A stretch of DNA of 64,000 nucleotides from Escherichia coli (GTDB taxonomy: Bacteria; Pseudomonadota; Gammaproteobacteria; Enterobacterales; Enterobacteriaceae), in assembly GCF_003790525.1 (NCBI RefSeq), contig NZ_CP033635.1; one strand, 5' to 3'. The translations under genes and the position numbers were made by a program. Positions within the stretch are counted from its first letter, which is position 1, and every line of letters begins with the position of its first letter. Below, one piece after another: positions 18,290 through 19,271 of this stretch. The notes beneath the pieces were generated by a model, which saw only the letters and a program-made list of their open reading frames with translations, did no database searches and had not been told where the DNA came from.

Positions 18290-18340
18290 CCGCGCCTGAC
18301 CTGTCGGGTGGATAAGGCGTTCATGCCGCATCCGGTATCG
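18290..18340. repeat. REP (repetitive extragenic palindrome)
   Basis: gggtggataaggcgttcatgccgcatccgg matches the REP consensus. Confidence 0.6.
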
Positions 18341-18377
18341 GAACTGACAGTAGGTGAACGCATTATCTACGTTCTAT

Positions 18378-18701
18378 TTACAGCAGCACCTCCAGCCCGT
18401 GTTTTTGCACAATGCTGAGCAGTTTTAATGAAATGCCATTGGGGCGTTTAGCGCCACTTTCCCATTTTTGTACAGTTGAAACGCTGGTATTGAGATAGTG
18501 AGCGAAGACGGGCTGACTCACTTTTAATTTTTCCCGCAGTGCTTTTATCTCAACAGGTTGTAAGTCTTGCACGCTGGTCAGGCAGGCTTTGTCAAAAGTA
18601 CGCATTGTTTCGGCAGAAATAGCATCGACGCTGGACAATCCAGCCGCTGCGCTGTGAATAGCCTCAAATGCAGGACTTTTAAATTTAGTTTTTGCAGTCA
18701 T
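18378..18701 (-). CDS. XRE-family HTH antitoxin (HigA-like)
   Basis: 107 aa with C-terminal helix-turn-helix (LNTSVSTVQKWESGAKRP); start overlaps the upstream toxin gene by 17 nt. Confidence 0.65.
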   Translation of the reverse strand: MTAKTKFKSPAFEAIHSAAAGLSSVDAISAETMRTFDKACLTSVQDLQPVEIKALREKLKVSQPVFAHYLNTSVSTVQKWESGAKRPNGISLKLLSIVQKHGLEVLL

Positions 18702-19038
18702 AGCAGATCTCTGTCAGTTCTTTAGTGTTAATCATTGCTGTTAGTTGGGCTTTCGTCAGGAAGGCATAATGCTTTGCAAGTTCACGAAACCCAGCCAGTT
18801 CCTGACTATTGATGTTCGACATATCCTGTTTTGCATATAAAAACGTGTAAAACCAATTGCTTCCCCCTTTTGCCAGAATAATTGCACGCTCACGATTTTG
18901 GTGAAGGCGCTTTTTAAAAACGCCACCACCAAGTACATCAGCTTTACCTTGTTCCGTTTCTAAAATGGCCCGGCACAACTCTTCATCTGTCATTGCATGA
19001 GACCTGGCTTCCCTTGCAAACCATTTGGTTTTAAACAC
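18685..19038 (-). CDS. RelE/HigB-superfamily toxin (toxin-upstream type II TA)
   Basis: 117-aa basic protein overlapping the HTH gene; family assignment from memory, unverified. Confidence 0.55.
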   Translation of the reverse strand: MFKTKWFAREARSHAMTDEELCRAILETEQGKADVLGGGVFKKRLHQNRERAIILAKGGSNWFYTFLYAKQDMSNINSQELAGFRELAKHYAFLTKAQLTAMINTKELTEICYDCKN

Positions 19039-19271
19039 GCGTATATCGTTGAGATCCTGTTATTAAAGTATATCACCAAGTGCAATACTTTATCCCTTGT
19101 TCCCAACACAATCGCGAAAATACATATCACCTTGCCCTATGATTTTTATTTCTTCGAGCAGCCTCGAACTTTTCCCACAACACCGTAAAAGTTGCAAAAA
19201 CGTTAAATGCGTCACACATTTCAATGTTAAAGTGGTCGGCTTTTCCCCTGAAACATGCCACGGGTAACACC

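Follow-up and report, generated by a model that had tools for sequence, protein, structure and literature searches.

A 64,000 nt stretch of Escherichia coli DNA (RefSeq assembly GCF_003790525.1, contig NZ_CP033635.1; hereafter the window) carries between yicN and nepI a pair of genes that we read as a chromosomal type II toxin-antitoxin (TA) operon of the Vibrio cholerae HigB2/HigA2 kind, an old occupant of the nepI-yicN junction that was lost from E. coli K-12. Taken as a whole, we consider this reading probable. Its established part comprises the family of the toxin, the predicted fold, the conservation of the catalytic residues, the strict pairing of the two genes, the conservation of a palindrome upstream of them and their genomic distribution. 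RefSeq already carries the pair with generic annotation; it is a member of a known TA class, as yet uncharacterised.

The window matches E. coli strain SMS-3-5 (NC_010498.1) at 100% identity, and there the NCBI annotation pipeline (PGAP) calls the same two coding sequences (CDS) that appear in our open reading frame (ORF) listing of positions 16500-21000, and annotates yicN and nepI as their flanks (Table 1). PGAP labels the toxin 'type II toxin-antitoxin system RelE/ParE family toxin' and the antitoxin 'helix-turn-helix domain-containing protein'. On their Pfam matches both ORFs are genuine genes rather than chance ORFs, because toxin (PF06296) and antitoxin (HTH_3) each score well over cut-off. 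A preliminary description of this DNA, made from its letters alone, had recognized two minus-strand genes with a 17-nt overlap, encoding a basic 117-aa protein and then a 107-aa protein with a C-terminal XRE-type helix-turn-helix (HTH), and had called them a toxin-upstream type II TA module. All of this stands with one amendment: the 117-aa frame is there as described, but it is an annotation fallback, and the normal start of the family lies two codons upstream (119 aa). The overlap recurs in Citrobacter, Salmonella, Dickeya, Yersinia and Klebsiella loci, and through it the two genes may be translationally coupled. An antitoxin follows the toxin in 78 of 80 loci, as expected of a type II TA pair, and the remaining two loci end within ~240 nt past the toxin.

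The toxin matches PF06296 ('RelE', the family of V. cholerae HigB2) with 132.2 bits against a cut-off of 27 (E 1.4e-38), over profile positions 3-120 of 120, and its isoelectric point (pI) is 9.0. Its predicted fold is RelE/ParE (BECR), with N-terminal helices against an antiparallel beta-sheet, and a fold search returned HigB2 as the closest solved structure to the model; the toxin fold that the preliminary description had left to be checked is thereby found, as a prediction. Two PF06296 members with a longer loop, P0261 and P0210, match HigB2 by phmmer (E 4e-4 and 2e-3), and the HigB2 fragment taken from these alignments scores 32 bits against PF06296, above the cut-off of 27. In a profile-sequence alignment, toxin residues R44, R51, Y68 and K70 fall on R51, R64, Y82 and K84 of V. 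cholerae HigB2 (VcHigB2), which mutagenesis showed to be required for activity (PMC5416850). Conservation is 90% or more at R44, R51 and K70 over 44 diverse relatives. The SMS-3-5 toxin carries I16M at a nearly invariant position. NCBIfam holds no model for the toxin.

Residues 52-96 of the antitoxin score 32.9 bits against HTH_3 (cut-off 23), and residues 46-102 align by phmmer with V. cholerae HigA-2 (5jaa_A/5j9i; E 8.3e-10), the closest solved relative of the antitoxin. Phmmer shows no similarity between the N-terminal segment and the N-terminus of V. cholerae HigA2 (VcHigA2); these ~45 residues are highly conserved. In an AlphaFold2 (AF2) model of toxin and antitoxin fused through a linker, built on a 29-pair alignment, antitoxin residues 10-24 are helical with a predicted local distance difference test (pLDDT) score of ~90, a hint that the N-terminal segment might neutralise the toxin. 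Other families were tried for the antitoxin and rejected. The MqsA models TIGR03830 and PF15731 gave 41.1 bits against 61.8 and 26.3 against 30, with the HTH half alone matching; the N-terminal zinc-binding CxxCG domain of MqsA type is ruled out, the sole antitoxin cysteine being C40; and NadS (NF041265) gave 41.3 bits against a cut-off of 60, the match being confined to the HTH.

An inverted-repeat scan upstream of the toxin found an imperfect palindrome with 13-nt arms, 26-54 nt before the annotated toxin start and invariant in four E. coli strains. We aligned the upstream regions of six genera and then of ~80 species-level loci, and in most of these loci a consensus TAGCAC-N3-GTGCTA stands at the equivalent place; its range takes in Enterobacterales, Betaproteobacteria (Gallionella, Sideroxydans) and Alphaproteobacteria (Acetobacteraceae and an uncultured alphaproteobacterium). 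The palindrome is likely to be the operator of the pair. Its E. coli half-sites, TTGCAC and TATCAC, deviate from TAGCAC, but because both are found as half-sites in other genera we do not regard the E. coli operator as defective. A candidate extended -10 element overlaps the right half-site, and TGnTATA(C/G/T)T is conserved both in the alignment and in the locus survey. Downstream of it CAGGAT, which includes the Shine-Dalgarno (SD) sequence, is invariant in the six genera and kept in most Enterobacterales loci. An extra half-site, ATATCACC at 19124-19131, was dismissed as chance, having neither a partner half-site nor conservation, and the inverted-repeat scan gave no second full operator near nepI. 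Residue 68 of the antitoxin (~18498-18500), in helix 2 of the HTH, is His in Escherichia (FAHYL) and Arg or Ser in most other genera (FARYL/FASYL); the recognition helix, TSVSTVQKWESG, is the same in Escherichia as elsewhere. One might speculate that His68 is tied to the Escherichia-specific operator half-sites.

Toxicity, neutralisation, DNA binding and the promoter of the module are inferred, the mechanism by homology with VcHigB2/HigA2 (PMC5416850, PMC11980606). The operon would be transcribed on the minus strand from the extended -10 promoter at about 19067-19075. The RelE-fold toxin would enter the ribosomal A site and cleave the mRNA under translation, using R44, R51, Y68 and K70; a review of the superfamily lists PF06296 under ribosome-dependent mRNA degradation (PMC11980606). 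The N-terminal ~45 residues of the antitoxin would fold onto the toxin and neutralise it, and a dimer of its XRE HTH, alone or with the toxin, would repress transcription by binding at 19064-19092, where the palindrome overlaps the -10 element. Once the labile antitoxin was lost, the toxin would be set free. In SMS-3-5, ATA in place of an ancestral ATG would probably cut toxin synthesis, and about two thirds of sequenced E. coli, K-12 included, would have lost the module by a deletion abutting a repetitive extragenic palindromic (REP) element.

Among 5426 complete E. coli genomes, 1716 (31.6%) carry the segment that varies between SMS-3-5 and K-12 (18338-19178), always on the chromosome, always with coverage of at least 80%, and in single copy in every carrier but one. 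The pair, for which the preliminary description had proposed such a presence/absence survey, therefore does not consist of universally conserved core genes. Carriers include O157:H7 EDL933 and SMS-3-5, a phylogroup F strain, and the non-carriers, K-12 included, have a uniform short junction. The preliminary description was right that the pair is absent from the yicN-nepI junction of K-12 (841 bp here are replaced by 42 bp there), but the implied addition of the pair to a K-12-type junction is probably backwards. The short junction is probably derived, the module having been lost there rather than newly inserted in the carriers, because the same junction is occupied across genera, the pair co-diverges with NepI, K-12 keeps a probable remnant, and neither mobility genes nor E. 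coli plasmid or phage copies were found.

Outside E. coli the nepI-yicN junction is occupied by the pair in E. ruysiae, Escherichia sp. E1V33, Citrobacter koseri, C. amalonaticus, Klebsiella oxytoca, michiganensis, grimontii, spallanzanii, indica and pneumoniae, and another Enterobacteriaceae genome. In Salmonella the pair adjoins nepI, and in Dickeya, Yersinia, Pectobacterium, Erwinia, Pantoea, Serratia and others it is located elsewhere. Its divergent orientation to nepI is constant across genera. Over 12 syntenic loci NepI distances correlate with those of both partners, the toxin at Spearman r 0.69 (Mantel p 2e-4) and the antitoxin at r 0.33 (p 0.011); YicN gives r 0.83 for comparison. The 42-bp filler of K-12 contains, collinear with the toxin and on the same strand, a copy of toxin codons 27-33 in which both mismatches are synonymous third positions, one of them (CAG) shared with E. 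ruysiae alleles; the encoded ETEQGK is Escherichia-specific. Of 5000 shuffles 4 attained the local alignment score of 28, as did 7 of 4914 random genomic 42-mers. This 19-nt match is probably a deletion scar of the toxin gene; homology of the right-hand 21 nt of the filler to the module was undetected. Annotation and a repeat scan revealed no integrase, transposase, other mobility gene or direct repeat at the segment borders, and E. coli plasmid and phage records held no copy of the pair.

The REP element that the preliminary description placed next to the pair is genuine, because the 45 nt at 18296-18340 have 40 or more matches each in 5425 of the 5426 E. coli genomes. It sits in the intergenic gap where yicN and the antitoxin gene converge, and the left edge of the variable segment abuts it at 18338; being common to SMS-3-5 and K-12, it lies outside that segment and is not part of the module. 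The partial element beside yicN we take to resemble the REP consensus. When the REP region downstream of the antitoxin was folded as RNA, its stability was no better than that of shuffled sequence (z -1.3), and for that reason we claim no terminator there.

The copy in SMS-3-5 departs from its relatives at the toxin start. The usual ATG of the family falls at 19042-19044, two codons upstream of the annotated GTG, and reads ATA in SMS-3-5, which is why PGAP fell back on the GTG and a 117-aa ORF. The Enterobacterales homologues examined begin ATG-CGN-GTN/ATN (MRV or MRI, 119 aa), save for one GTG and one ATA start in the surveyed loci; the toxin of E. coli AZ146 starts with ATG, and ATA is found also in O157:H7 NE122 and CUVET20-PYO4. 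Start alleles were counted by megablast with allele-specific 41-mers, in which the central mismatch leaves no 28-nt seed. ATA was found in 629 carriers and ATG in 1082 (together 1711 of the 1716), the ATA share of 37% being inflated by oversampling of O157:H7. Set against the homologues, ATA is the derived allele of an ancestral ATG start. Initiation at AUA runs at ~1% of that at AUG or less in published reporter measurements, and the substitution probably lowers toxin synthesis in SMS-3-5. The same ATG-to-ATA change arose independently in the second of two module copies in Erwinia mallotivora, which lie ~13 kb apart on contig NZ_JFHN01000045.1.

Further decay of the toxin was seen. PGAP reports a frameshifted toxin in CUVET20-PYO4, EM10-18-28 and E57, apparently one lineage, with an antitoxin identical to that of SMS-3-5; in CUVET20-PYO4 the lesions are W6* and a 1-nt deletion. 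Such strains made up an estimated ~5% of a 60-genome spread sample, three records being verified. Truncated toxin ORFs stand beside intact 107-aa antitoxins in Mixta theicola (42 aa), Lonsdalea quercina (61 aa) and Winslowiella iniecta (78 aa), and among the loci examined there was no intact toxin beside an annotated antitoxin pseudogene. Toxin-first decay is the order expected for an addictive pair. Between genera the ratio of nonsynonymous to synonymous substitution rates (dN/dS) is 0.03-0.15 for both genes, pointing to purifying selection. Within E. coli it is 0.26-0.35 for the toxin against 0.10-0.19 for the antitoxin, from few substitutions, which suggests somewhat relaxed selection on the toxin; identity to C. 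koseri is 71% for the toxin against 86% for the antitoxin. The module region of strain HS-02, only 80% identical to other E. coli, was considered as a second lineage and rejected, since its toxin carries a frameshift and the locus has no annotated antitoxin CDS; the copy could reflect decay or a low-quality assembly.

Several observations weigh against our reading. Searching the PDB with the toxin, as a single sequence and as a 44-sequence profile, returned nothing relevant, so that a fold search and intermediate homologues were needed to reach HigB2; hhalign of the toxin profile against VcHigB2 gives a probability of 15% (E 0.0018), a remote similarity. The beta2-beta3 loop of VcHigB2 is disordered and Lys/Gly-rich and contributes to activity, and its replacement impairs the toxin (PMC5416850), but the 11 residues there (ASKGKGKRGGS) are here ~5 (HQNRE); the short loop is shared by most close relatives, and just 2 of the 44 aligned PF06296 members have a long one. 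The global confidence of the fused AF2 model is moderate (predicted template modelling score, pTM, 0.60). A strict scan of 18200-19300 for -35/-10 promoters and terminators gave no site, and the promoter assignment accordingly draws on conservation. SMS-3-5 may make little toxin, because the start is ATA and the fallback GTG is 16 nt from the SD. The K-12 scar is just 19 nt, with p about 1e-3. Horizontal transfer is evident elsewhere in the family, with relatives on conjugative plasmids of rhizobia, Legionella and Pseudomonas, and the C. koseri toxin is 82% identical to that of Dickeya against 74% to that of Salmonella; vertical descent at the nepI-yicN junction is for this reason the best reading and not a proven one. 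We found no experimental study of this E. coli pair.

Of the other explanations, the one with most to recommend it, though still unlikely, is that the module is a domesticated or decaying remnant, its toxin attenuated or silent in SMS-3-5 and its antitoxin kept as a stand-alone HTH repressor, possibly of the divergent nepI. The ATA start in 629 of ~1711 carriers, SMS-3-5 among them, would fit this, as would the toxin pseudogenes seen next to an intact antitoxin both in several strains of E. coli and in other genera, the better conservation and lower dN/dS of the antitoxin, and the fixed divergent orientation to nepI. But the SMS-3-5 copy keeps all four catalytic and all family-invariant residues, dN/dS of the toxin is well under 1, most carriers retain ATG, the homologues in Dickeya, Yersinia, Pectobacterium and elsewhere keep the operator with no nepI neighbour, and nepI has no second full operator close by. 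A bolder proposal, which we think improbable, makes the short-loop branch of PF06296 a vertical element fixed beside nepI, the purine-nucleoside exporter gene, since before Escherichia, Citrobacter, Salmonella and Klebsiella split, and so something beyond a selfish mobile addiction cassette; loss of the basic loop would alter or weaken ribosome engagement, loss of the start codon would repeatedly lower expression, and the pair would be a host-integrated regulator whose target might be, for instance, translation, or nepI under purine or nucleoside stress.

We give similarly little weight to a maintained role in anti-phage abortive infection, which would be compatible with a HigB2/HigA2-type operon. 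TA modules of the RelE/ParE superfamily are discussed as defence toxins (PMC11980606) and the pair is a variably present accessory trait in E. coli; PADLOC, however, matched the toxin to no defence-system model and the antitoxin to generic HTH models only, and the pair stands outside any defence island, locus-fixed and apparently vertical, unlike typical mobile defence cassettes. Very improbable, in our judgement, is a recent mobile cassette inserted beside the REP in the SMS-3-5 lineage, with the K-12 junction as the ancestral empty site. Absence of the pair from 68% of E. coli genomes, the edge abutting the REP, the degenerate REP-like fragment just inside the segment and the plasmid-borne family members of other bacteria could be so explained, but this account has to contend with the same junction occupied in E. 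ruysiae, Citrobacter and Klebsiella (in Salmonella the pair is beside nepI), with TA divergence that follows NepI divergence, with the synonymous-only differences of the K-12 filler from the toxin, and with borders and replicons free of the marks of mobility described above. That the toxin is instead ParE-like, a poison of DNA gyrase and not an mRNA endonuclease, is scarcely credible: the RNase HigB2 is its best structural and sole sequence-level relative, the RelE-type catalytic tetrad is conserved, and the superfamily review places PF06296 with ribosome-dependent mRNA degradation (PMC11980606).

Table 1. Features of the yicN-nepI junction, in window coordinates or protein residues
Feature	Position	Strand	Basis and remarks
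Partial REP, 3′ half, CGTCTTATCAG-CCTACAG	18270..18288	+	directly 3′ of the yicN stop; inverted repeat with the REP; shared with K-12
REP element	18303..18337	-	exact pattern match; shared with K-12; left border of variable segment
Variable segment, 841 bp	18338..19178	.	alignment of SMS-3-5 with K-12; 42 bp in K-12
Degenerate REP-like fragment, TGAACGCATTATCTAC	18355..18370	+	just within variable segment; inverted relative to the REP; 16 nt, 88% complementary to 18308-18323
Antitoxin CDS	18378..18701	-	107 aa, ATG start; ORF list and PGAP WP_000125643.1
Putative toxin-neutralising segment	antitoxin residues 1-45	-	layout and conservation
HigA2-like XRE helix-turn-helix domain	antitoxin residues 46-102	-	HTH_3 and phmmer
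Overlap of toxin 3′ end and antitoxin 5′ end, 17 nt	18685..18701	-	ORF coordinates
Toxin CDS as annotated	18685..19038	-	117 aa, GTG start; ORF list and PGAP WP_012311743.1
Putative catalytic residues of toxin	R44, R51, Y68, K70	-	alignment to VcHigB2
Toxin codons 27-33 (ETEQGK)	18942..18960	-	17/19-identical copy in the 42-bp filler of K-12
First two codons of the usual toxin frame of the family	19039..19044	-	ATA CGC here, ATG CGC elsewhere
Shine-Dalgarno AGGA	19055..19058	-	10 nt before ancestral start codon, 16 nt before annotated GTG
Candidate operator, imperfect palindrome TATTGCAC-ttg-GTGATATA (toxin strand)	19064..19092, core 19069-19087	.	inverted-repeat scan
Putative extended -10, TGATATACT (TGn + TATACT)	19067..19075	-	read from sequence; conservation

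Some observations on the wider family were made along the way. In the acetic acid bacteria (Acetobacter, Gluconobacter, Asaia, Acidomonas and others; Acetobacteraceae), more than 10 species have identical regions upstream of the module, which implies its recent horizontal spread in that family. A metagenome-assembled genome (MAG) labelled Collinsella sp. Map_57_008 holds E. coli-like and Klebsiella-like copies on ~1-kb contigs, almost certainly through binning contamination. Sinorhizobium meliloti was dropped as a characterised relative, pSymA of strain 1021 having a truncated fragment only.

Elsewhere in the window, approximately 20659-37090 form an island between nepI and yicS in SMS-3-5. 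Its genes specify a 2933-aa inverse autotransporter adhesin (EaeX/Air; 20659..29460), a HilA-like regulator EilA, IpaD/SipD-like and YopB/SseC-like type III translocon proteins and a SycD/LcrH chaperone; in HS-02 and E. ruysiae nepI-yicS-nlpA are contiguous. PGAP also annotates the type I toxin gene tisB (~3207-3296) upstream of emrD, and two hypothetical CDS (479 aa and 160 aa; ~6770-9323) between uhpA and ilvN. Past setC, from ~45000-50000 and beyond, lies what is left of a P4-like satellite prophage (primase-helicase, Icd-like, polarity suppression protein, Ogr/Delta), after which comes a SIR2-family protein; the remnant may carry defence cargo.

The pair is one more chromosomal TA module, as yet uncharacterised, of pathogenic and environmental E. 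coli; it does not overturn current understanding. It escaped laboratory study because K-12 is without it, and K-12 for its part offers a clean natural null background for the module. A chromosomal position stable across genera is unusual for TA modules. The natural ATG/ATA polymorphism at the toxin start and the series of toxin-first decay may be of interest to TA specialists, and a likely operator conserved across proteobacterial classes would provide a ready-made binding site for HigA2-type repressors.

Among known systems, V. cholerae HigB2/HigA2 (VCA0468/0469; PDB 5JA8, 5JAA, 8A0X) comes nearest. Both have a PF06296 toxin with the conserved R, R, Y and K, encoded first, and an antitoxin in which an N-terminal segment precedes a C-terminal XRE HTH, and the V. 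cholerae toxin is the closest solved structure. They differ in that toxin identity is ~22%, with no direct sequence match, the Lys/Gly-rich beta2-beta3 loop is shortened here from 11 residues to ~5, the N-terminal segments of the antitoxins are without detectable similarity, and the V. cholerae genes form a superintegron cassette, those described here being fixed at a core-genome junction. The preliminary description had called the arrangement HigBA-like, which is right as to toxin-first order and wrong if it is taken to mean the HigB families of plasmid Rts1 or K-12. HigBA of Rts1 (Proteus vulgaris) and HigB/HigA (YgjN/YgjM) of K-12 share with the module the order of genes, a RelE-superfamily toxin fold and an HTH antitoxin. 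MqsR/MqsA of E. coli likewise has the toxin first, and the C-terminal HTH of MqsA resembles that of the antitoxin. RelE/RelB of K-12 differs, with the reverse gene order, a ribbon-helix-helix RelB instead of an HTH protein, and a RelE that belongs to PF05016. By the families of its two proteins (PF06296 and XRE-HTH), the module falls in the HigB2/HigA2 class, apart from Rts1 and K-12 HigBA, MqsRA and RelBE.

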